From the NCBI GenBank assembly GCA_964493715.1, contig CAZBPC010000094.1:1-12709 (forward strand): a DNA stretch of 12,709 nt, written 5' to 3'. The position numbers and the translations under genes are program-made. Below the pieces are notes generated by a model that was not told where the DNA came from, made no database searches, and saw nothing but the letters and a program-made list of their open reading frames with translations. How positions within the stretch are numbered: position 1 is the stretch's first letter; every line of letters begins with the position of its first letter. The DNA comes from an uncultured archaeon. Lineage in GTDB: Archaea; Asgardarchaeota; Lokiarchaeia; Sigyniarchaeales; SOKP01. Shown here one piece after another: positions 1 through 10,356 of this stretch.

Positions 1-1555
1 TGTTTAATTTCGCACTATGATATATAGCAATTATTTTTTCATCAGTTTTGTCTATTTTTTCAATCTTGATATTCATTAGATCTTTTAGCCGAATTATTTG
101 ATTAATCTCGAGTTTATCTCTATCAGATTTTGAAACAAATACACTCAGGATATTGTTTTCAGCATTTAATTTGATTATTCTCTTTCCTTTTTCTGGTTTT
201 GAAGGCAATATAAAAGGTTCAGCTATATAATGCTCTTTTGGAACTTCCTTTATTTCTATCTGTATTGGATCTTCAACATAAAAATATCGATCGGATAGTT
301 CATCAATGATGTTTTTATTATTTGCATATAACCAATTAACAGAAAAAGAGATTCCCGTTAATGACATTCCCAAATCTAATAAGGAGATTCTTAAAGCTTC
401 GGGCTTGATACCACGCTTTTTTAATGATTGTAGACTCCACGTTCTTGGATCATTCCAACTTTGAAATGTCCCGTCTTTTATTTTATTTCTGGACTCTGTT
501 TTGCTTAATTTCATATCAGAAAATTTTAATCTTCCATAATGTAAGAATTCTGCTTTTGGCCATTTGAAATGCTCCCAAATAAAAGTTTCAATAAAATCTT
601 CTTTGACTAAATCCAACCCTCTTAGAATGTGAGTAGCTCCTATTAAATGATCATCAATAGCCCATGAAAATTCTAACATTGGCCATACCCTATATTTCGT
701 TCCCACTCTTGGATGTTCTGCCTCAGAAATTCTCATTATTATTTGATCACGCAATGCAGGATCTTTTTGATCCATTCCCGTTTTTAATCTTACTGTAGCC
801 GTAGTTTCAGGATATTTCCCTTGTAGCATGTTATTCCATTCTAGTAGATTAGTTTCAATTTTATTATTTCTGTGAGGACAATCTTTTTGTGTCAGTTTAT
901 ATTTATCTTTGAATTCTTTTGCTTCACAAAAACAAACATAAGCGATCCCATCTTCAATGAGTTTTTTACAATACTCATAGAAAATTTCTAGCCTATCACT
1001 CTTATAATAAACCTTTGAGTAGTTAACACTTAACCATTTTAATCCCTCTTTAATCAGATCATAAGATTCGGGTAGGACGTACTTAGCTTTTGGACTGGAT
1101 CTCTGAGACTTTGAGCTTCCAATTGTATCATCAAAAAATAATATCAATTCTCCCTTATAGCGTTTTACGTATTCATCATTTAAAATTACCATTCTAGCAT
1201 TTCCGATATGTAAAGCTCCACTGGGATATGGTGCTAATCTCATTACGACTTTTTCATATTTTTTTATATTAGGTAATTCGGGTAAGATTTTCTCTTCTCT
1301 CGAAGATTCTTTCTTATTTAGTGCGTCCGGATCAAGTTCTAATAACTTTTTTCTTTGTTCATCAATATTTAATTGTTCTATTGCTTCTATAACTTCCTCT
1401 AATAATGGAGTTATGAATGATGCTTGTGATCTCAGATCTTTTTGATCTTGCATTATTTTACCCATTATTGCTTTTTTATTTGGTGTTCCTCCAAATTTTA
1501 CAGCATTATTTAGAGTAAATTTCCAAATGAGTTGTTTTAGTTTATCTTCATCCAT
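1..1555 (-). CDS. gltX: Glutamyl-tRNA synthetase, archaeal type (3' end runs off the window)
   Basis: Manual translation from ATG at 1555 (MDEDKLKQLIWKFTLNNAVKFGG...) stays open for ~518 codons to the window edge. It contains RLAPYPSGALHIGN (HIGH motif), FDDT, CFC...CPH zinc-type motif, IDDHLIGATHILRG, MKLSKT (KMSKS equivalent) and WNDPR...RGIKPEAL. Not in the ORF track because the stop lies outside the window. Confidence 0.96.
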   Translation of the reverse strand, partial: MDEDKLKQLIWKFTLNNAVKFGGTPNKKAIMGKIMQDQKDLRSQASFITPLLEEVIEAIEQLNIDEQRKKLLELDPDALNKKESSREEKILPELPNIKKYEKVVMRLAPYPSGALHIGNARMVILNDEYVKRYKGELILFFDDTIGSSKSQRSSPKAKYVLPESYDLIKEGLKWLSVNYSKVYYKSDRLEIFYEYCKKLIEDGIAYVCFCEAKEFKDKYKLTQKDCPHRNNKIETNLLEWNNMLQGKYPETTATVRLKTGMDQKDPALRDQIIMRISEAEHPRVGTKYRVWPMLEFSWAIDDHLIGATHILRGLDLVKEDFIETFIWEHFKWPKAEFLHYGRLKFSDMKLSKTESRNKIKDGTFQSWNDPRTWSLQSLKKRGIKPEALRISLLDLGMSLTGISFSVNWLYANNKNIIDELSDRYFYVEDPIQIEIKEVPKEHYIAEPFILPSKPEKGKRIIKLNAENNILSVFVSKSDRDKLEINQIIRLKDLMNIKIEKIDKTDEKIIAIYHSAKLN

Positions 1556-1648
1556 GACGTAAAACCACTGTTTGAATTTAATAAGTAAATTTATTAATTA
1601 AATTCTCTAATTTCCCATATTAGTAATATCTTTCTAATGCAATTCATT

Positions 1649-1945
1649 ATGACTCCTAATTATTATCGTGGTTATATATTAATAAGATTAAAAGTAATTG
1701 GAACTGAATGGGAAGTCGTAAAAAGATTAACGAATTTATCCTCTTCAGAACCAGATGATGATTGGAAGGTTGGTTACGTGACCCCTGTATATGGGGGATG
1801 GGATTTAGTAGTCGAGTGTAAATTTCGAAAGTTACTTGAATTAGATAAAATTGTTGGATACCTTAGTACTGAAGAAGAATTAAGTTCTTGGATTGAAGAA
1901 ACAACGACTTTAGTATCGAATAAACCAGATGATGTATCTCAATAA
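1649..1945 (+). CDS. Stand-alone Lrp/AsnC ligand-binding (RAM) domain protein without HTH
   Basis: ~98 aa with YILIRL...G.E..V...L and VTPVYGGWDLVV (cf. VxGxYDxxx of RAM domains) and C-terminal TTTLV. Start is ATG 1649 or 1637. Confidence 0.65.
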   Translation: MTPNYYRGYILIRLKVIGTEWEVVKRLTNLSSSEPDDDWKVGYVTPVYGGWDLVVECKFRKLLELDKIVGYLSTEEELSSWIEETTTLVSNKPDDVSQ

Positions 1946-1989
1946 AGATTAGTACATATCTTTTTAAAAAGTAATTAAATCTGAAAGTC

Positions 1990-2658
1990 CTATTGAATTT
2001 TAATATTTAATAGGTTGCAAATTTCTTTAACGCTGATAAAGGATAGATCTTGAATTATCATATCAGCAGTGCGGAGTTCAACGATATCATGAGTTGTAGT
2101 TAAAGCAATACATTTCATATTTGCTCGTTTTGCTGCTTCTATGCCTACAGGTGCATCTTCAATTACTAAACAATTTTGTGGTTTTAAATTAATCTTTTGA
2201 GCAGCTATTAGGAACACGTCTGGAGAAGGTTTTCCCCTTTGAACATCTGCAGCAGTTATTATGGCGTCAAAAAAGGATTCAATTTTAAGAGAAGTTAGAA
2301 GTAATTCTACGTTTTCTGGAGGACCACTTGATCCTACTGCTATTTTGAAATTTTTTGATTTTAGCTCCTCTAATAATTCTATAACTCCAGGGAGAGGTAC
2401 GATATTATCTTTAACCATTTCTCTGTAATATTGTTCCTTTAATTGAGCCCATTTTTCAACAAGATTCTGATCCACTTTTCTACCGACTAATTTTCGTGCT
2501 ATAGGTACGCTTTGTTGTCCAAAAGTAGCTTCAAAAAAGCTTTTTTTGAAGGTCATTCCGATTTCATTTGCCATCTTTACCCAACTTTCATAATGGATTA
2601 GCGCCGTATCTGCTAATACTCCATCCATATCAAAGATTACGCCATAGTTGTTAGACAT
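1990..2658 (-). CDS. HAD-superfamily phosphatase, beta-phosphoglucomutase/CbbY-like
   Basis: Motif I IFDMDGVLADT, motif II VGSSG, motif III GKPSPD, motif IV IEDAPVGIEAA. ATG at 2658 preferred over the track's TTG at 2679. Confidence 0.9.
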   Translation of the reverse strand: MSNNYGVIFDMDGVLADTALIHYESWVKMANEIGMTFKKSFFEATFGQQSVPIARKLVGRKVDQNLVEKWAQLKEQYYREMVKDNIVPLPGVIELLEELKSKNFKIAVGSSGPPENVELLLTSLKIESFFDAIITAADVQRGKPSPDVFLIAAQKINLKPQNCLVIEDAPVGIEAAKRANMKCIALTTTHDIVELRTADMIIQDLSFISVKEICNLLNIKIQ

Positions 2659-2706
2659 AGCTTTGAGGTTAAAAGACAATTAGATAATTATTATAGAGAT
2701 GTTTAA

Positions 2707-2714
2707 TTTTTAAG
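2707..2714 (+). promoter_or_regulatory. Candidate TATA box of the tRNA gene
   Basis: TTTTTAAG centred ~25 nt upstream of the mature tRNA 5' end; AT-rich background limits certainty. Confidence 0.4.
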
Positions 2715-2752
2715 GATTATAAAAACTTCATAAAGGACCTGGTAGTCTAGCT

Positions 2753-2781
2753 AATTCTTAGAATTTTCTCTGGATCTAGAA
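2753..2781 (+). other. tRNA intron 1 (29 nt, D-loop, about position 17/17a)
   Basis: BHB geometry: 4-bp helix CTAG(2747-2750)/CTAG(2776-2779), 3-nt bulges CT|A and AA|T, intron stem ATTC/GGAT. The spliced D-loop reads AGCTTGGATA. Exact junction could shift by 1 nt. Confidence 0.8.
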
Positions 2782-2824
2782 TGGATAGGGCGCTGGCTTG
2801 CGGAGCCAGATATCGAGGGTTCAA

Positions 2825-2854
2825 ACCTTATTTCGTTTGGTAATGAGGGAACAA
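2825..2854 (+). other. tRNA intron 2 (30 nt, T-loop, position 58/59)
   Basis: BHB geometry: helix GTTC(2819-2822)/GAAC(2849-2852), bulges AA|A and AA|T, 7-bp intron stem CCTTATT(2826-2832)/AATGAGG(2842-2848). The spliced T-loop reads TTCAATT. Confidence 0.88.
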
Positions 2855-2869
2855 TTCCCCCCCAGGTCA

Positions 2870-2874
2870 TTTTT
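2870..2874 (+). terminator. Oligo-T tract directly after the tRNA, candidate archaeal terminator
   Basis: TTTTT immediately follows discriminator A2869. Confidence 0.4.
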
Positions 2875-2882
2875 CCATAATT

Positions 2883-3632
2883 TCATTCTATCAAACCAAT
2901 GATTTCTGAGATGTCATTTATTTTTATATACTCTGGTCCAATTATGTCTTTTTCATAAGGAAATTCATATAATCTTTTACAGAGGATTGTCTGAAGTCCT
3001 GCTCGATAACCTCCCATTATATCAGCATACTCATCTCCACAAATCATACAAGAATCAGGGACTTCTAAACCCATTTTTTTTAATGTGTAGTGAAAGATTT
3101 CAGGATCTGGTTTTCTCTTTCCAAATTCAGCAGAAGTAACCACCACATAAAAAAATTTTCTTAAATCATATTTTACTAACAATTTTTCTATAGTTTTATG
3201 GTGAGGATGGTTAGAAAGTACTGCTAATTTAATTTCTTTATTTTCCTTTAATTTCTCAAGCGTCTCAGCAGTTTTTTCAAGCGGGTACCATTCTTCTTCT
3301 TCACAGGAATGATAAATATCTGCGAGTTCTTCATACAATTTTGGATTAAGATCTTTTGCATTAAGCATTTCGAGAGTTTCTTTAAAAATTTCTGCAGTTC
3401 GATGTTCTGTTTTTGACTTCATACTCTCTTTAAAGTATCTTGCTCGCTTTCTATTAAATATATTAATAAAAAATGCTCCATCCTGTTCATTTTTAATGAT
3501 ATTAGATATTTTCAATTTATTTACAGATTTCACCAATCCGGCTTTATAGCAATTAAGATATTTTTCAACAGATGCATCTTTGAATTCAAATAATGTGAAC
3601 CCAAAATCAAAGATTAGCCCTTTAATTTTCAA
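2883..3632 (-). CDS. HAD-superfamily hydrolase, subfamily IA
   Basis: IFDFGFTL (motif I variant), VLSN, KRKPDPEIF, CGDEYADIMGG. TTG start. Confidence 0.88.
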   Translation of the reverse strand: MKIKGLIFDFGFTLFEFKDASVEKYLNCYKAGLVKSVNKLKISNIIKNEQDGAFFINIFNRKRARYFKESMKSKTEHRTAEIFKETLEMLNAKDLNPKLYEELADIYHSCEEEEWYPLEKTAETLEKLKENKEIKLAVLSNHPHHKTIEKLLVKYDLRKFFYVVVTSAEFGKRKPDPEIFHYTLKKMGLEVPDSCMICGDEYADIMGGYRAGLQTILCKRLYEFPYEKDIIGPEYIKINDISEIIGLIE

Positions 3633-3673
3633 ATTTTAATTTAACTTAGAGAGACAATGATTAATTATAATAG

Positions 3674-3730
3674 AATTATAGTTATATTTGAATACTTCAA
3701 ATTTTAATTTATCTCAGAATAACTATAATT
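3674..3730. repeat. Nested inverted repeats in a divergent intergenic region
   Basis: AATTATAGTTAT (3674-3685)/ATAACTATAATT (3719-3730) is a perfect 12-bp IR enclosing ATTTGAA-tac-TTCAAAT (3686-3702). Confidence 0.6.
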
Positions 3731-3786
3731 ATTAATGAAGTAACAAGAATAGAATATTTATCGCGAATCCTATATATAATAGAATC

Positions 3787-4305
3787 ATGGCCCTTAATAA
3801 ATGGCTCTCAGATCCAGAAATAGAAGAGAGAAGAAAAAAGAAGGAAGAGATGTACAATTCGTTACCAGACCAAGAAATTCAAGAATTAAAAAAAGAATCG
3901 ATACGGAAAATTGTAAGGGATGAGAAGGAAGAAGGGTCAACTGAAGATATTTCGGATAATATCTTAAATGATATCATTGAATTTAAGAACTGGGTTGATT
4001 CACGAACATATTTAAAAGGGGATTTAGAAAAGATTGAGATTTGGATTAAAATTTTATATAAAAAAATGGTTTCAACCAATAAATTATTAAATAAAGATAA
4101 TTTTGATCGGGATCTCGGTGAGGATTTCAGAAAGATACCAGTCGATTTTTTAGATGAACAAACTAGATTTGCTGTAATAAAGAAGTTACGAAATACAAAA
4201 AGAACAAATTCTGATAATTACTTCTTGCGAAAGTTAAAAATGATTGTAGAAATGAAGCTAATTGAGGCAAAATATTACAAGATTTTGAAGAATATATTAG
4301 ATTAA
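3787..4305 (+). CDS. Hypothetical protein, highly charged and probably helical
   Basis: 172-aa ATG ORF filling the space between neighbours, preceded by TATTTAT at 3755-3761; no recognisable motif. Confidence 0.75.
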   Translation: MALNKWLSDPEIEERRKKKEEMYNSLPDQEIQELKKESIRKIVRDEKEEGSTEDISDNILNDIIEFKNWVDSRTYLKGDLEKIEIWIKILYKKMVSTNKLLNKDNFDRDLGEDFRKIPVDFLDEQTRFAVIKKLRNTKRTNSDNYFLRKLKMIVEMKLIEAKYYKILKNILD

Positions 4306-4395
4306 CTAAAGTAATCAATTACCAAAACATTTTTTATTATATTTGTATTAATGTAAAGTACCATTGGTAAAACCATTTATAAATTTACGTTAATC

Positions 4396-5478
4396 ATGCG
4401 TATTATATGTCCTTTAGCAGGAGTAGGAAAAGGGTTACAACCGTTTACATACTCCAAACCAAAAGCTTTTTTAAAAGTGGCAGGTAAACGATTAATTGAT
4501 TTTAATCTAATAAAACTTATGAAGAGTTTCCCAAAAGGGACTAAAATTTGTTTTATTGTAGGATATAAAAAAAGGCAAATTAAAGAATACCTAAATCAGA
4601 AGTATTCAGAATATTTTGAGATAGATTTCATTGAACAAAAGCCTTTAGGTTATACCGCCGAAGAACCCTTTTTTCCGGGTCTTGGAGATGCTATTTTGTA
4701 CGCTAAAGAATTCGCTTTTAATGATGATGCTTTTATTTTTTTAAGTGATAGAGTACCATTGGAAGATTATTCTTCAATATTAATAAACTTCCATCAATGT
4801 GATTGTGATGGAATAGTGAATGTGAAAAAGGTAGAGGAACCACAGCATTATGGTGTTGTTAAACTCGACAATGATGGTTTTTTAACTCAAATTGTTGAAA
4901 AACCAGCAATTCCTGAATCAAATGTTGCAGTATCAGGAGTTTACATCATTGCTAAATCGATAATTAATCGATTATTCGAGCTCTTAGATAATCAAAGAAA
5001 GAAGACTCTTAAGAATGGAGAAGTGTATCAATTTACACCAATCCTTGACAAAATGATCCAAGAAGGAGCGAGAATTAAATCAAATGAAATGATAGAAGAA
5101 GTTTTGGATTTTGGGAGACCTGATAGTCTCTTAAAAGGAAATCGATTTCTTTTATCAGAGATAAAGAATCAAGATCCAATATATGAAGATCTAACTAGGA
5201 ATGGCATGATTATTGATACCAAAATCATCCCTCCGGTATATATTGGAAAAAATGTAAAAATAATTGATTCTGTAATTGGACCAAATGTATCAATGGGGGA
5301 CGATCTCAACCTTGAAAAATGCATCCTTTCAGAATCTGTACTAGGAGATGGAGTTCGATTAAAAAGGATAATATCTTCAGAAAGCATAATAGGAGACTAT
5401 TCCATACTAGAAGATCTAATCAAAAATGGAATAACCATAGGAGATGCTTCATTCATTACAACAAGTAATACTAAATAA
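4396..5478 (+). CDS. Sugar-phosphate nucleotidyltransferase family protein (NTP_transferase + C-terminal left-handed beta-helix; glucose-1-P thymidylyltransferase long-form-like)
   Basis: PLAGVGKGLQPFTYSKPKAFLKVAGK, GLGDAI, PQHYGVV, IVEKP, DFGRPDSLL and hexapeptide repeats (PPVYIGKNVKIIDSVIGPNVSMG). Confidence 0.88.
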   Translation: MRIICPLAGVGKGLQPFTYSKPKAFLKVAGKRLIDFNLIKLMKSFPKGTKICFIVGYKKRQIKEYLNQKYSEYFEIDFIEQKPLGYTAEEPFFPGLGDAILYAKEFAFNDDAFIFLSDRVPLEDYSSILINFHQCDCDGIVNVKKVEEPQHYGVVKLDNDGFLTQIVEKPAIPESNVAVSGVYIIAKSIINRLFELLDNQRKKTLKNGEVYQFTPILDKMIQEGARIKSNEMIEEVLDFGRPDSLLKGNRFLLSEIKNQDPIYEDLTRNGMIIDTKIIPPVYIGKNVKIIDSVIGPNVSMGDDLNLEKCILSESVLGDGVRLKRIISSESIIGDYSILEDLIKNGITIGDASFITTSNTK

Positions 5479-5493
5479 AAAATGGTGAATATT

Positions 5494-6921
5494 TTATATG
5501 TTTGGCTTTTTATCTTGCCAAGAAGCGAGTTCTTCAAAAGCTTTTGACACCTGAAGGACTGTTTTTTCATCATAACGCTTACCAACAATTTGCATTCCAA
5601 TTGGTAAACCAGATCTTGTCCAACCACATGGAATTGACGCAGCTGGTAACCCAGTCATATTAAAAGGATATGTATATGTGATCCAATCCATAGTACTTAA
5701 TGTCTTTTTACCGATTGTAGGAAATGTCGTTCCAGAATCTAACCAACCGGGTTTAAAGGCAGGGCAAGGAGTCGTTGGTGTAATCAGTATATCATAATCC
5801 TTAAAATATTGATACATGACTTCATAGACTTGTTTCCTTTGTTCTCTAGCTTTCCCAATATTAATCGAATTAGTATCTAATCCTAATCTTACTATAGAAT
5901 TTAAATCAGTACTTAAAATTTCAGGGTTTTCATTATAAGCTTTTTGTAAGTCATAAGCATAACCTACGCTAACTAAAGTTTTAAATGCTAGACCGGGGTT
6001 TTTTATTTTTAATTGAGTTTCTTCTACATCCCAATCATATTTTTCAAATTTGTGAATACCATTTAGAACATTTTCTTTAACTTCATCTTCAAGAACTTTC
6101 GCAAAACCTAAAGTCATTGAATAACCAATCTTTAATTTTTTAGGTTTATCCTCAAGTGCTTTGATGTAATCAATATGATCGTCGGGTATAGAATTATTAT
6201 CAGCGGGATGATATCCTTTCATTACATTTAACATTAGTGCTGCATCCTTGACATAACGAGTAATTGGGCCATAATGATCCATTGACCAAAATGCAATGGT
6301 ATCATGTGGGTATCTCGGTATGCGACCAAAGGTTGGCTTTAACCCAAATACTCCACAACAACTACTAGGAACTCTAATTGAACCTCCTCCATCAGAACCT
6401 AAAGCTAAAGGCCCCATACCTGCTGCTACTGAAGCAGCTGCTCCTCCACTTGATCCTCCAGAATTTGTCTCGATATTCCATGGACTTTTTGTTTCTCCAA
6501 AGATCTTATTATTTGTAAGAGCGACATGTCCAAATTCAGGTGTATTTGTTTTTCCTAAGATAACACAACCTGCATTTTTCAATCGTTTTACTGCAACTTC
6601 ATCTTCTTCAGGAACAAATTTCTCGTGCAACAATGAACCATAAGTAGTTCTAATCCCTTTTGTTAGCATTAAATCTTTAATTGACGTCGGAATACCTGTT
6701 AAAGAACCAAGATTTTGTCCATTTCTAATAGAGTCATCCGCTTTTTTAGCCATCTCTCTTGCCATATCAAAGGTAAGAGTGCAATAAGCATTGATTATTG
6801 GATTAATTTTTTCGATTCTTTCTATAAAAACCTCTAAAATCTCACTCGAGGTCTCTTCTCCATTCTTTATAGCTTCTGCCATATCCACAGCAGACATAAA
6901 ACAAATTTCTTCCTTATTCAT
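5494..6921 (-). CDS. Amidase-signature family amidase
   Basis: SIKD (catalytic Lys), GKTNTPEFG, GGSSGGAAA, GSDGGGSIRVPSS (Ser-cisSer-Lys triad), PFNMTGLPAASIP, GLPIGMQIVG. Confidence 0.93.
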   Translation of the reverse strand: MNKEEICFMSAVDMAEAIKNGEETSSEILEVFIERIEKINPIINAYCTLTFDMAREMAKKADDSIRNGQNLGSLTGIPTSIKDLMLTKGIRTTYGSLLHEKFVPEEDEVAVKRLKNAGCVILGKTNTPEFGHVALTNNKIFGETKSPWNIETNSGGSSGGAAASVAAGMGPLALGSDGGGSIRVPSSCCGVFGLKPTFGRIPRYPHDTIAFWSMDHYGPITRYVKDAALMLNVMKGYHPADNNSIPDDHIDYIKALEDKPKKLKIGYSMTLGFAKVLEDEVKENVLNGIHKFEKYDWDVEETQLKIKNPGLAFKTLVSVGYAYDLQKAYNENPEILSTDLNSIVRLGLDTNSINIGKAREQRKQVYEVMYQYFKDYDILITPTTPCPAFKPGWLDSGTTFPTIGKKTLSTMDWITYTYPFNMTGLPAASIPCGWTRSGLPIGMQIVGKRYDEKTVLQVSKAFEELASWQDKKPNI

Positions 6922-6971
6922 TAGTCAATCTCACAAAATTTGATTTATTATTGTATATGTATTTTATTGAA

Positions 6972-7065
6972 GTTAAACAACTATATATTGATTGTGTCTA
7001 ATTTATCAAATAAAATATGTTATCATTTACAAAATCTTAGATCTTTAAGTGAATAGAATATTTAT
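6972..7065 (+). repeat. Degenerate direct repeat, copy 1
   Basis: 6972-7044 aligns ungapped to 7584-7656 (hand count 59/73 identical) with identical 21-mer CATTTACAAAATCTTAGATCT at 7024-7044; similarity continues past a 1-nt indel to AATATTTAT. Confidence 0.85.
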
Positions 7066-7113
7066 GTCAATATAATATTATAAATCATAATAAAATCGCT
7101 GATGTGAGGAAGT

Positions 7114-7518
7114 TTGCCAAGCTCAATTGGAGATGATTGGGATTTATCTTTTTGCGGTTTAAATTGCGTAAAATGTGATATCTTTTTATCCTCTCACGGA
7201 GATGAGAAATTACAAGAGGAATTGGTGAAATGGTTTAAGGAAAATGTAGATTCCACTATAGAGCATGTTAACTGTGAAAAATGTAGAAGTCCCATTGGAG
7301 AATGTTGGAGTAGTGATTGTGAATTAAGATCTTGCGCCACGAAAAGGAATGTTAATTATTGCTTTGAATGTCCAGATTTCGTCTGTGATAAATTAGACAA
7401 ATTTGCAAATGATGGTTATGGACATCATAAACGGACAGTAGAAAATATGAGAGATATGAAAAAAAAGGGTTTAAAAAAATGGATTTCTTTTCACAAAGAA
7501 GCTCAGTTTTGTCCTTAA
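7114..7518 (+). CDS. DUF3795-like cysteine-rich (putative metal/Fe-S-binding) protein
   Basis: CGLNCVKC...CEKC...C....C...C......C..C....C pattern typical of DUF3795. TTG start with SD-like GTGAGG a few nt upstream. Confidence 0.82.
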   Translation: MPSSIGDDWDLSFCGLNCVKCDIFLSSHGDEKLQEELVKWFKENVDSTIEHVNCEKCRSPIGECWSSDCELRSCATKRNVNYCFECPDFVCDKLDKFANDGYGHHKRTVENMRDMKKKGLKKWISFHKEAQFCP

Positions 7519-7583
7519 ATAATTATTAAAACACAATTTTCAAAGAGTTTTAAACACTTAGACTGACTTTATAGAATAATTTT

Positions 7584-7676
7584 GTTGAACAACTATATTT
7601 TAATTGCTTTTAGTTATTTAAAGAAAATATGATGCCATTTACAAAATCTTAGATCTAAGGTAAATAAAATATTTAT
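7584..7676 (+). repeat. Degenerate direct repeat, copy 2
   Basis: Offset 612 bp from copy 1; 21-mer core at 7636-7656; contains perfect palindrome CTTAGATCTAAG (7648-7659). Confidence 0.85.
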
Positions 7677-7745
7677 TTATCAATTGATTATATCAGTTAA
7701 TATCGATCAGAATGTTGATTAAAAATAAGCTCCTATTGATGAACT

Positions 7746-8426
7746 TTGAATAAAAAACATAAGCAAATATTAAATGTCCTCTTTTTAAGTTTCCTTATTA
7801 TTTGCATTTTTTTCAGCGTTAATGTAAAAGCCCAAACATTCAATTTAGAAATAAAGGAAAATGATGAATTTGTATGGGAGATAAAAGAATTAAATATAGA
7901 TAAATTTGAATACACTTTCAATACAGAACCAAATTTTGACATTGGAGATCAAGTAAAAATGGTTATTAGAGACGTCACGGATCTAAAAGGAGTTAGATGG
8001 TCAGTTACTGTTGAATTTTGGGATTACGGAACTGATTGGACTGCTAGTGGAGAGCTTGAATATTTGAGTATATATGAATCTCCTACTGAGTATGATGATT
8101 ATCTCTTTGTTCCAACTCCTGTAGATGATTATTTTAAAACGGCCATCGAGAGTTTACCATCAGATTATTATTCTAATTCCCCATTAACTATCGGAAGACA
8201 AGCAAGAAGTGATACAGGTATCCCTTACAGAGTAGAGAAGAGTTTCGATATTCATGGAATTTTATTATCTGAAACTTACTTTAATGAACAAAATTCAGTT
8301 ATCGTAAAGTTAGAAGGAACATTCTTCTTGGTGCCATTAGGATTCTCTTTTATAGGATTCATGGCGATAGCGATAATTTCGATAATAGCAATATTCTTTA
8401 AAAAGAATAAAATAAGTATTGGTTAG
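7746..8426 (+). CDS. Secreted, C-terminally membrane-anchored surface protein
   Basis: Basic-hydrophobic signal peptide ending VKA|QT, acidic ectodomain, then VPLGF + transmembrane helix + KKNK tail. TTG start. Confidence 0.8.
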   Translation: MNKKHKQILNVLFLSFLIICIFFSVNVKAQTFNLEIKENDEFVWEIKELNIDKFEYTFNTEPNFDIGDQVKMVIRDVTDLKGVRWSVTVEFWDYGTDWTASGELEYLSIYESPTEYDDYLFVPTPVDDYFKTAIESLPSDYYSNSPLTIGRQARSDTGIPYRVEKSFDIHGILLSETYFNEQNSVIVKLEGTFFLVPLGFSFIGFMAIAIISIIAIFFKKNKISIG

Positions 8427-8434
8427 CTAGACGT

Positions 8435-8842
8435 TTAGAATTTAAAATCTTTTTGGTATTCTCGATATCCTAACTTTAGAAGCTTTAAACTTGATTTATT
8501 CAGTTTATTATCAACCTCAATTCCAGGACGTGGATTGTTCATCATATTATGATAAAGAGTATAATAATCATCTGTTGATGGATTATTTCGAATTAAATCA
8601 AGAATTGCCTTTTCTGTGAAATATAAAATTAGATCAGGTTTGAAACCAGGATTTATTTTAGTCATTTCTACAGTATTAGCATCTTTTTTAAATAAAAAAT
8701 AACGTAGTTTAGCGTGTTCTTCACGTGTAGATTCCTCAGTAATGATATATTCCCAACAGGCGTTAATACTAAGATGTCTCATCAAATCAGGGTTCTTTGA
8801 AAAATAAGCTTTTAATTTCTCATATAATTCTTTAGTTTCCAT
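8435..8842 (-). CDS. Hypothetical protein B, SCP2-like features, paralogue of 10406-10867
   Basis: 135-aa ORF with KPDLILYFTEKAILDLI resembling the SCP2 (P/A)DxxL...helix segment. Fold assignment is tentative. Confidence 0.7.
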   Translation of the reverse strand: METKELYEKLKAYFSKNPDLMRHLSINACWEYIITEESTREEHAKLRYFLFKKDANTVEMTKINPGFKPDLILYFTEKAILDLIRNNPSTDDYYTLYHNMMNNPRPGIEVDNKLNKSSLKLLKLGYREYQKDFKF

Positions 8843-8862
8843 ATTTGTAAAAATGTATAAGG

Positions 8863-10356
8863 TTATTTGATATTCTCAAGATTCGTCGGAGTTCCATCAT
8901 AAATATATTTTTGATATACTAGCTCTTGGGGATAATATTTGCATCCTGAAGGATAAGCTGAATCCTTAATTCCACCTAAAGCAACGGTTATATCAGTTAA
9001 CATGGGTCTAGCATTAATATATATATTCGCTGCTTCTAATTCCCTTTTGAAAACCTCAATTTCTTCCAAGTTGGTCGAGTATACTACTGCTCTCATCCCA
9101 TAATTACTAGCATTTGCAAGTCTGATTGCATCCTTTAAACTATTAGCTTTAGTAATTGATCGCACGGGACCAAATGCCTCTTCGCGCCATAGAAAAGGTG
9201 CTTTGGTCAGATCTTCGCATAGTTCAGGTTTGATCTCCACAAGTGTAGGTTTATAAAATAATCCATAATCTTCACCAGTGTCAATTTTTTCAGCACCTGT
9301 ATATATATGAGTATTATAATTTTTTGCATCCTCAACCATAACATCCATCATCATTAATATACGTCGAGATCCTAATGGTCCGATGTCAACAGTGGGATCT
9401 GTGGGGTCTCCATATCTCAATTTTTCAATTTCTTTTACTAAACATTCTACATAATCATCATAAATATCTCGATGTACGATTATTCGCTTCATAGAGAAGC
9501 ATTGTTGACCTGAATTGGTGTAACTTGCCATGGCATTCCATTTGGCAACTTTTTCTAAATTGACATCATTCATCACGATTCCAGCATCATTTCCCGCGCA
9601 TTCAAAGAAGAATTGTTTAAAGGGTTGAGTATACATTTCTACTCCCATCGATTTATTTGAAGTTTTTTTCAATAATCTTCCATATCTTACAAGAATATCT
9701 TTTGCTGTATGTGAGGAGGTAACTGTCATAATAATTTTGATAAGATGAGATTTCAGAAATTCATCTACTGCCCATTCACCAGGAGCAATGATCAAATTTA
9801 ATGCATCTAAACCAGGTAGATTCGTATCTTCCATGGTAGAAAAAGCTTCTAGCATAGTTAAAGGACAAGCGGTAGATGGCTTAACAATCGCACCATTCCC
9901 CACTAAATAGTTAGCACCCAACTGATAAAGGGGAAGACTAATAGGTGTGTTACGTGGGGAAATACAAGCAGATAGTCCATGTGGAATATACTTTATTATT
10001 ACATTTTGCTCTCCTTCAATCCCAGTTAATGGTTTGTCTTCTATAAATTGATAATACCAATCACAAAATCGGAAACCGGTTAAAACAATATTCAATTCCC
10101 ATTCCGAGTATTTGATCGGCAGACCTCCTTCAGCAACAACTAAATCTTTTAATTTATTCTTTTTAAATCGCATTTTACCTGCATATTTAGAGAGATTTTG
10201 AGCGCGTTCAAAGAAGTCCATTTTATTGAGTAGATGTTGTGATTCATACACTTTTTTTATTTTATCTCTAAGAGACTCAGGAGTATCTGCTTTTATGGTA
10301 TCAATAACTTCTCCAGTATATTTATTCTTTATTTCTAATTCTGATGATTTTGACAT
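8863..10356 (-). CDS. Aldehyde dehydrogenase family protein (divergent motifs)
   Basis: SPRNTP, GNGAIVKPS, FECAGND (catalytic Glu), NSGQQC (catalytic Cys), EEAFGPV, ANASNYGM. ATG 10356 is preceded by SD-like AGGTG; the track's GTG at 10365 lies within that SD. Confidence 0.92.
   Translation of the reverse strand: MSKSSELEIKNKYTGEVIDTIKADTPESLRDKIKKVYESQHLLNKMDFFERAQNLSKYAGKMRFKKNKLKDLVVAEGGLPIKYSEWELNIVLTGFRFCDWYYQFIEDKPLTGIEGEQNVIIKYIPHGLSACISPRNTPISLPLYQLGANYLVGNGAIVKPSTACPLTMLEAFSTMEDTNLPGLDALNLIIAPGEWAVDEFLKSHLIKIIMTVTSSHTAKDILVRYGRLLKKTSNKSMGVEMYTQPFKQFFFECAGNDAGIVMNDVNLEKVAKWNAMASYTNSGQQCFSMKRIIVHRDIYDDYVECLVKEIEKLRYGDPTDPTVDIGPLGSRRILMMMDVMVEDAKNYNTHIYTGAEKIDTGEDYGLFYKPTLVEIKPELCEDLTKAPFLWREEAFGPVRSITKANSLKDAIRLANASNYGMRAVVYSTNLEEIEVFKRELEAANIYINARPMLTDITVALGGIKDSAYPSGCKYYPQELVYQKYIYDGTPTNLENIK

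Follow-up and report, generated by a model that had tools for sequence, protein, structure and literature searches.

The tRNA-Arg(GCG) locus

The window, a stretch of 12,709 nucleotides (nt) from contig CAZBPC010000094.1 of an uncultured archaeon, contains at 2736-2869 on the plus strand an apparently intergenic interval. The original prediction, made from the letters alone, took this interval to be a complete tRNA-Arg(GCG) gene interrupted by one insert in the D-loop and one in the T-loop. The genome carrying the window is referred to here as G000 and its contigs by C-numbers, the window contig being C94; other G-numbers denote genomes of relatives. The genome is Asgard, as had been guessed: its GatA homologs are 82-84% identical to those of 'Promethearchaeota' and Hermodarchaeota metagenome-assembled genomes. 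Splice junctions were assessed against the bulge-helix-bulge (BHB) geometry, in which a 4-bp helix (H) carries a 3-nt bulge on each strand and cleavage follows the second base of each bulge (marked ^ below); h denotes the outer exon-exon helix and h' the helix of the intron hairpin. The parts of the gene and of its two motifs are as follows.

2736-2752 (+): exon 1, 17 nt; acceptor 5' strand GACCTGG, T8 and A9, D-stem 5' strand GTCT, and D-loop bases A14, G15, C16 and T17
2753-2781 (+): intron 1, 29 nt, in the D-loop at 17/17a; hairpin h' formed by 2754-2757 with 2772-2775
2776-2779 (+): part of intron 1, intron strand of central helix 1
2782-2824 (+): exon 2, 43 nt; D-loop remainder T17a G18 G19 A20 T20a A21, D-stem 3' strand GGGC, anticodon arm, variable loop ATATC, T-stem strand GAGGG, and T54 to A58
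2800-2802 (+): anticodon GCG, within exon 2
2825-2854 (+): intron 2, 30 nt, in the T-loop at 58/59; hairpin h' formed by 2826-2832 with 2842-2848
2849-2852 (+): part of intron 2, intron strand of central helix 2
2855-2869 (+): exon 3, 15 nt; T59 and T60, T-stem 3' strand CCCCC, acceptor 3' strand CCAGGTC, and discriminator A73
2870-2874 (+): run of five T directly 3' of the discriminator, read from the sequence
2747-2782 (+): BHB motif 1; H of CTAG (2747-2750) with CTAG (2776-2779), four Watson-Crick pairs
2751-2753 and 2780-2782 (+): 5' bulge (CT^A) and 3' bulge (AA^T) of motif 1; h' of 4 bp, h of one G.U pair
2819-2855 (+): BHB motif 2; H of GTTC (2819-2822) with GAAC (2849-2852), four Watson-Crick pairs
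2823-2825 and 2853-2855 (+): 5' bulge (AA^A) and 3' bulge (AA^T) of motif 2; h' of 7 bp, h of 2 bp

The coordinates and lengths of both inserts are those given in the original prediction, and, as stated there, each intron starts with A and finishes with AA. Joining the three exons yields 75 nt that ARAGORN calls as tRNA-Arg(gcg), with introns in the D-loop and T-loop and, as anticipated, none at 37/38; the anticodon arm, CTGGC-TTGCGGA-GCCAG, is unbroken. ARAGORN draws the spliced product with an acceptor stem of 7 bp and a variable loop of 5 nt; two pairs of the D stem are G.U, and the 10-nt D-loop holds A14, G18 G19 and A21. The conserved bases T8, A14, G18 G19, A21, T33, G53 T54 T55 C56, A58 and C61 are all present, and the exception in the cloverleaf is A50.C64. 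The joined exons have a GC content of 58.7%, against 27.6% for intron 1, 36.7% for intron 2 and about 31% for the flanks. CCA is not encoded after exon 3, and the TTTTT at 2870-2874 resembles an archaeal transcription stop signal and may act as one. The unspliced gene escapes default annotation, as had been suspected. On the raw window ARAGORN called no tRNA and Rfam at its gathering score gave no match; the tRNA model (RF00005) reaches 24.3 bits over exon 2 (C94:2779-2839), below its threshold of 29.

Both junctions fit the 4-bp helix with 3-nt bulges that had been proposed for them, and two controls back this assignment. When the intron letters were shuffled, an equally good BHB arose at the exact junction in 19 of 200,000 trials for intron 1 and in 5 of 200,000 for intron 2. 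When the boundaries were slid by up to 5 nt (an 11x11 grid), the junction listed above was the only one to pass, for both introns. Loosely defined BHB-like pairings are frequent in this AT-rich DNA (about 97 in one 300-nt stretch), and what carries weight is therefore that the motif coincides with junctions that restore a tRNA, rather than the motif alone. We conclude, with a probability of roughly 0.9, that 2736-2869 (+) is the single functional tRNA-Arg(GCG) gene of an Asgard archaeon, encoding a 134-nt precursor with hairpin introns at 17/17a and 58/59.

The genome also encodes the enzymes that such a precursor would require. Two loci, C5:37733-38356 and C58:18440-19057, match PF01974 and PF02778 and encode paralogs of the splicing endonuclease EndA of 207 and 205 amino acids. 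The first is closest to the alpha subunit of Aeropyrum pernix (3p1z_B, E 1e-36) and has the catalytic Tyr, His and Lys in place; its segment FYGAPLGISKPRMEYF aligns without gaps to YYGQPLDVEKPRGADF of 3p1z_B, which sets K-P-R over K44-P45-R46 of the Crenarchaea-specific loop. In A. pernix, where K44 and R46 were defined, K44 is needed for cutting a D-loop BHB intron (PMC3241643). In the second paralog, which is beta-like, Ser replaces the catalytic His. These features point to a two-gene EndA, predicted to have the (alpha-beta)2 architecture with the Crenarchaea-specific (L1) loop in the catalytic subunit. The original prediction had linked the introns to the EndA type of the lineage; the link is correct but not new. 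The RNA ligase RtcB is encoded at one locus. In the scheme that we propose, each intron would pair with the exon stretch immediately upstream of its own 5' splice site, forming the 4-bp helix and two 3-nt bulges; the two-subunit EndA, with its catalytic alpha subunit bearing the Crenarchaea-type loop and its beta-like paralog, would cut after the second base of each bulge; RtcB would join the three exons; CCA would be added to the 3' end; and the resulting 75-nt tRNA would decode CGU and CGC.

Orthologs, intron sites and alternative readings

Orthologs were sought in genomes of the genus by BLAST and pattern search, and the gene was found in 19 of 41; neither method found it in the remaining 22, a pattern-search match in G055 being rejected as a false positive. 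A relaxed splice scan of the relatives gave many spurious ARAGORN calls, and only combinations that agreed with the intronless reference were kept. The gene is flanked by the same two HAD-hydrolase genes, both of which were matched in six loci and one of which was matched in four more. In G007 the ortholog is intronless and scores 58 bits with the Rfam tRNA model. The spliced G000 product is identical to it at 70 of 75 positions, and two of the five differences form a compensatory change of pair 2-71 (A2-T71 in G000, G2-C71 in G007). Exon 2 is identical over its 43 nt in G000, G023 and G007.

The comparison of intron positions among relatives that had been called for shows five intron sites and eight architectures across the 19 genomes, the intronless state included:

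G007: intronless
G023: 17/17a only
G000: 17/17a and 58/59
G021, G018, G010, G019, G045, G047, G054: second D-loop site and 45/46
G046: 45/46 only
G041: 45/46 and 58/59
G015, G014, G044, G017: 58/59 only
G024, G012, G043: 37/38 and 58/59

The G023 gene has only its 17/17a site filled; the intron there is 30 nt long and differs in sequence, with the CTAG/CTAG helix and the AA^T bulge retained. T-loop introns at 58/59 were measured in eight genomes, G000 and seven others (the T-loop intron of G014 was read only and stands outside the eight), and all are exactly 30 nt long. Their H consists of GTTC with GAAC, GAAT or GGAT, and their hairpin sequences differ yet stay paired. The second D-loop site in seven genomes has a relaxed BHB with three of four H pairs, and its exact limits are uncertain; for G041 and G046 the variable-loop introns were positioned by eye.

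The gene, its BHB motifs, its orthology and the presence of the enzymes are established. Several observations nevertheless weigh against the reading of a functional two-intron gene. The outer helix h is weak in both motifs, as the original prediction had remarked (one G.U pair for intron 1, two pairs for intron 2), and the motifs are therefore not full hBHBh' structures. Neither the minimum free energy (MFE) fold nor the centroid fold computed for the precursor with ViennaRNA holds either BHB, and the stability of the fold is ordinary (z of -1.58, with 14 of 200 shuffles folding as well). ARAGORN reports a single mismatch in the T stem of the spliced product, A50.C64, and the spliced T-loop reads TTCAATT versus TTCAAAT in intronless relatives. 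When its rules are relaxed, ARAGORN also takes splice combinations inferior to this one. Another Arg(GCG) gene whose introns are unusual is still conceivable, as the tRNA census of the genome is incomplete, and that the precursor is transcribed, cleaved and ligated is something we infer from sequence. A search for RNA sequencing runs (window 1-10000) listed none. The free-energy fold was taken as uninformative because the energy model penalizes 3-nt bulges; a fold constrained to both BHBs keeps the acceptor and anticodon stems (-39.5 versus -43.7 for the MFE fold, a cost of 4.2 kcal/mol). The A50.C64 mismatch (2816 with 2860 in the window) is common to all relatives in the genus with a GGCCTGG-type acceptor (the same positions in L002, L003 and L006-L009), including the intronless gene, and is a lineage trait rather than damage.

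It is possible that the gene is real and that a splice boundary lies elsewhere, for example with the T-loop cut one base farther 3' (59/60, giving TTCAAAT) or with another second intron. Intronless relatives read TTCAAAT at this place, and the tRNA Asp of G000 (C124) seemed, by hand reading, to be in the 59/60 register, its T stem serving as outer helix. For the second intron, either 2814-2835 or 2815-2834 is accepted by ARAGORN too. However, the 59/60 register would pair TTCA with AACA, which gives one of four pairs, and none of the shifted junctions in the grid passes the BHB test. All eight orthologous T-loop introns fit 58/59, with a base 59 that varies (A, G or T). Both alternative second introns were rejected, as they yield products of 83-85 nt, and so was a 28-nt register at 2826-2853 (TTCA/GGAA, three of four pairs), which results in a 9-nt T-loop. 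We give a different boundary little probability.

The locus might instead be a decaying pseudogene whose inserts are not removed, with CGU and CGC (CGY) codons read by another, undetected tRNA. The weak outer helices, the T-stem mismatch and the incomplete census would all suit such a reading, but the exons match an intact ortholog at 70 of 75 positions and include a compensatory change in the acceptor stem, each insert falls exactly within a strict BHB motif, and the length and pairing of the T-loop intron are kept in the eight genomes measured. The check on whether this is the only Arg(GCG) gene of the genome, which the original prediction had proposed, turned up no other by ARAGORN, BLAST, pattern search or BHB-splice scans. 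This is in a genome that is rated 100% complete and uses 4,003 CGT and 1,774 CGC codons, 5,777 CGY codons among the 933,260 codons of open reading frames (ORFs) of at least 200 codons. Very little probability attaches to a pseudogene in our view. That GC-rich intergenic fragments assemble into a cloverleaf by chance might be suspected from the frequency of loose BHB-like pairings and from the many spurious splice combinations that ARAGORN accepts under relaxed rules. Against this stand the syntenic, intronless orthologous tRNA gene, the identity of exon 2 in two other genomes, and the shuffle and offset controls; the ortholog, the synteny and the 70/75 identity already refute chance resemblance in practice.

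Inserts in rtcB

In the sole rtcB gene of G000 (C2:10967-12309, minus strand), an insert of 29 nt at C2:12136-12164 (L073:1237-1265) divides the coding sequence between two frames. Removal of this insert restores PGGVGYDINCGVR in one open frame with the conserved GGVGYDINCG, and the site, which we call site A, falls between GGVGY and DINCG. The junction forms a strict BHB in which H is TTGG/CCAA, h' spans 9 bp and the bulges read AT^A and AG^A. The same insert is present in G001, where 28 of 29 positions are identical, and in G152 of another genus, where 26 of 29 are identical and both changes in the stem keep the pair. It was not seen in the other 39 genomes of the genus that were searched, which matched in the exons only or showed no match spanning the insert. 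Once the insert is taken out, the RtcB proteins of G000 and G001 are identical at 426 of 462 positions, and their genes have 89 synonymous versus 36 nonsynonymous codon differences. The intron is 28/29 identical between these two genomes, against 90% identity of the coding sequence, but the sites are too few to support a claim of extra conservation. Among the matches listed in a blastn-short search of the intron against the genome, none besides the self-match exceeds 17 nt, and there is no sign of copying between genes among these matches.

A second site, site B, lies between LPD and AHQGYG in all six genomes examined of genus g38, which belongs to another Asgard family. The inserts there are 29-30 nt long and contain TAA or TGA, and they occupy the following loci:

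L096 (G105), L105 (G109), L106 (G100), L107 (G116), L108 (G093) and L109 (G084): rtcB site B, just upstream of the AHQGYG codons

At site B the BHB has CCCG/CGGG as its helix; one bulge is AC^A or AT^C and the other is AA^G, and the hairpins vary. Five of the genomes pass the scripted BHB test, and the sixth (G093) has three of four H pairs by hand reading. The two independent sites support the idea that BHB introns have reached the coding sequence of rtcB. A strict scan of G000 for BHB motifs that fuse ORFs produced 325 clusters, of which rtcB ranked first, with no other convincing case. Six other short candidates that would join ORFs were inspected by reading only. Four of these show either a GGAG/GGAGG-like box together with a start codon or a typical N-terminus, and resemble ordinary spacers between genes; the other two are ambiguous.

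A different kind of interruption was noted in two further genomes, G082 (L099/L103) and G129 (L097/L102), where one ORF of about 990 amino acids makes up rtcB and the family match is split by about 1.4 kb near the same conserved region. These ORFs look intein-like.

In the literature that we searched on BHB introns in protein genes, only the work on cbf5 was found. The cbf5 pre-mRNA intron of Crenarchaeota (PMC2738675) resembles the rtcB inserts: both are short BHB inserts in a protein gene, with a patchy distribution, and removal of each restores the frame. The two cases differ in gene and phylum, and rtcB has two sites in two Asgard families, with splicing predicted. We lean toward the view that BHB introns are turning over fast in this Asgard family and that the same process has placed BHB introns in the coding sequence of rtcB, creating a self-referential splicing loop. 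If so, the synthesis of RtcB would depend on existing RtcB and EndA. Confirmation would extend protein-gene BHB introns beyond cbf5 and into relatives of eukaryotes, and would tie expression of an RNA ligase to the very splicing pathway that the ligase serves. We regard the rtcB inserts as more unusual than the tRNA finding and, if confirmed, as the more consequential of the two.

Hidden tRNA genes and known systems

The tRNA-Arg gene is one of many in G000 that are concealed by introns. ARAGORN finds 16 uninterrupted tRNAs in the genome and 27 when anticodon-loop introns are allowed. A genome-wide splice scan with strict BHB motifs adds six, Gln(CTG), Gln(TTG), Lys(TTT), His, Thr(CGT) and Arg(GCG), and a relaxed scan of intergenic GC islands adds eight, Phe, Met, Asn, Ile(TAT, by hand), Ala(CGC), Trp, Asp and Leu(TAA). 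At least 14 tRNA genes thus emerge only after BHB-guided splicing, many of them with a T-loop intron of 28-30 nt. Examples of such hidden loci are C17:36140-36288, C23:5055-5206, C23:31406-31594, C87:6622-6761, C104:2046-2226, C124:1091-1207 and C149:3079-3311. Intergenic GC islands of 60 nt or more that had no explanation numbered 93; eight of these have been resolved and 85 are left. This census by ARAGORN and BHB-guided splicing did not recover tRNAs for Tyr, Cys, Glu, several Val or Arg(CCG/CCT). Since the only decoder of CGU and CGC is hidden, together with other tRNAs, until BHB-guided splicing is applied, annotation pipelines would report a false gap in the code. The practical value of the analysis lies here, in hidden tRNA genes, the sole CGU/CGC decoder among them, that standard annotation misses.

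Multi-intron tRNAs of the Thermoproteales were reportedly described by Sugahara et al. in 2008. These are alike in having several noncanonical BHB introns per tRNA and an (alpha-beta)2 EndA; the Thermoproteales are hyperthermophilic Crenarchaeota, whereas the genome studied here belongs to another phylum and is a mesophile-like Asgard genome with 30% GC. The pre-tRNA-Thr of A. pernix likewise has a D-loop BHB intron, and its EndA has a catalytic subunit that bears the loop; cleavage was shown biochemically there, whereas the comparison made here is one of sequences (PMC3241643).

Closer parallels exist within the Asgard archaea, and the novelty implied by the original prediction was overrated, as three sources already cover hidden multi-intron Asgard tRNAs or their EndA (PMC5829648, PMC11291895, and bioRxiv 10.64898/2026.10.13.758758). 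According to PMC5829648, a survey of tRNAs and EndA that takes in Lokiarchaeota CR_4, Asgard archaea carry an (alpha-beta)2 EndA with the L1 loop, and tRNA sets could not be completed, which raised the suspicion of unidentified disrupted genes. For three genomes of Atabeyarchaeia and Freyarchaeia, the accessible sections of PMC11291895 report introns in 92-95% of tRNA genes, often noncanonical and multiple. A census of 90 genomes (bioRxiv 10.64898/2026.10.13.758758) describes, in the text available, hidden D-arm introns that standard callers miss, T-arm inserts with strong canonical motifs and introns gained repeatedly on terminal branches, and it treats EndA as a permissive background rather than an explanation. 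The heavy cases that this text names are Freyrarchaeaceae, Jordiarchaeaceae and Atabeyarchaeaceae, and words beginning with Lokiarch- or Promethearch- are absent from it.

As far as these partial sources go, the published Asgard cases and G000 are alike in short noncanonical BHB introns, several per gene, in an EndA of two paralogs, in D-arm introns that callers miss, in strong T-arm motifs and in repeated gains among close relatives. They differ by this gene and genome and by the series within one genus, with five sites in eight combinations across 19 genomes, observed here. The tRNA-Arg gene is accordingly a correct new instance and not a new kind; its novelty is low for the tRNA itself and moderate for the series at the locus. 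The genus series fits the picture of repeated gain drawn in the 90-genome census. As a series at a single locus, it offers a clean natural experiment on how introns are gained and lost, and it could help to date such events.

A few further loci of G000 were noted in the course of the tRNA census. At C26:18122-18304 ARAGORN gives ambiguous readings that include Arg(acg) and Arg(cct), and the hand reading is Ile(TAT). At C27:32051-32122 a unit of about 53 nt that includes GGTTCAAGATCCCCTCGAAAAC occurs twice in direct orientation; the unit is T-arm-like and is not a tRNA. The 3' half of a tRNA lies at the start of a contig (C41:39-126), its 5' part being cut off or located elsewhere; it ends in ...GGGTTCAAATCCCTCTCTGCGCACCA, and CCA appears to be encoded there. 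On the same contig as the Ile(TAT) gene, at C26:15797-15889, ARAGORN calls a tRNA-SeC(tca), and this call suggests that the genome may decode selenocysteine.

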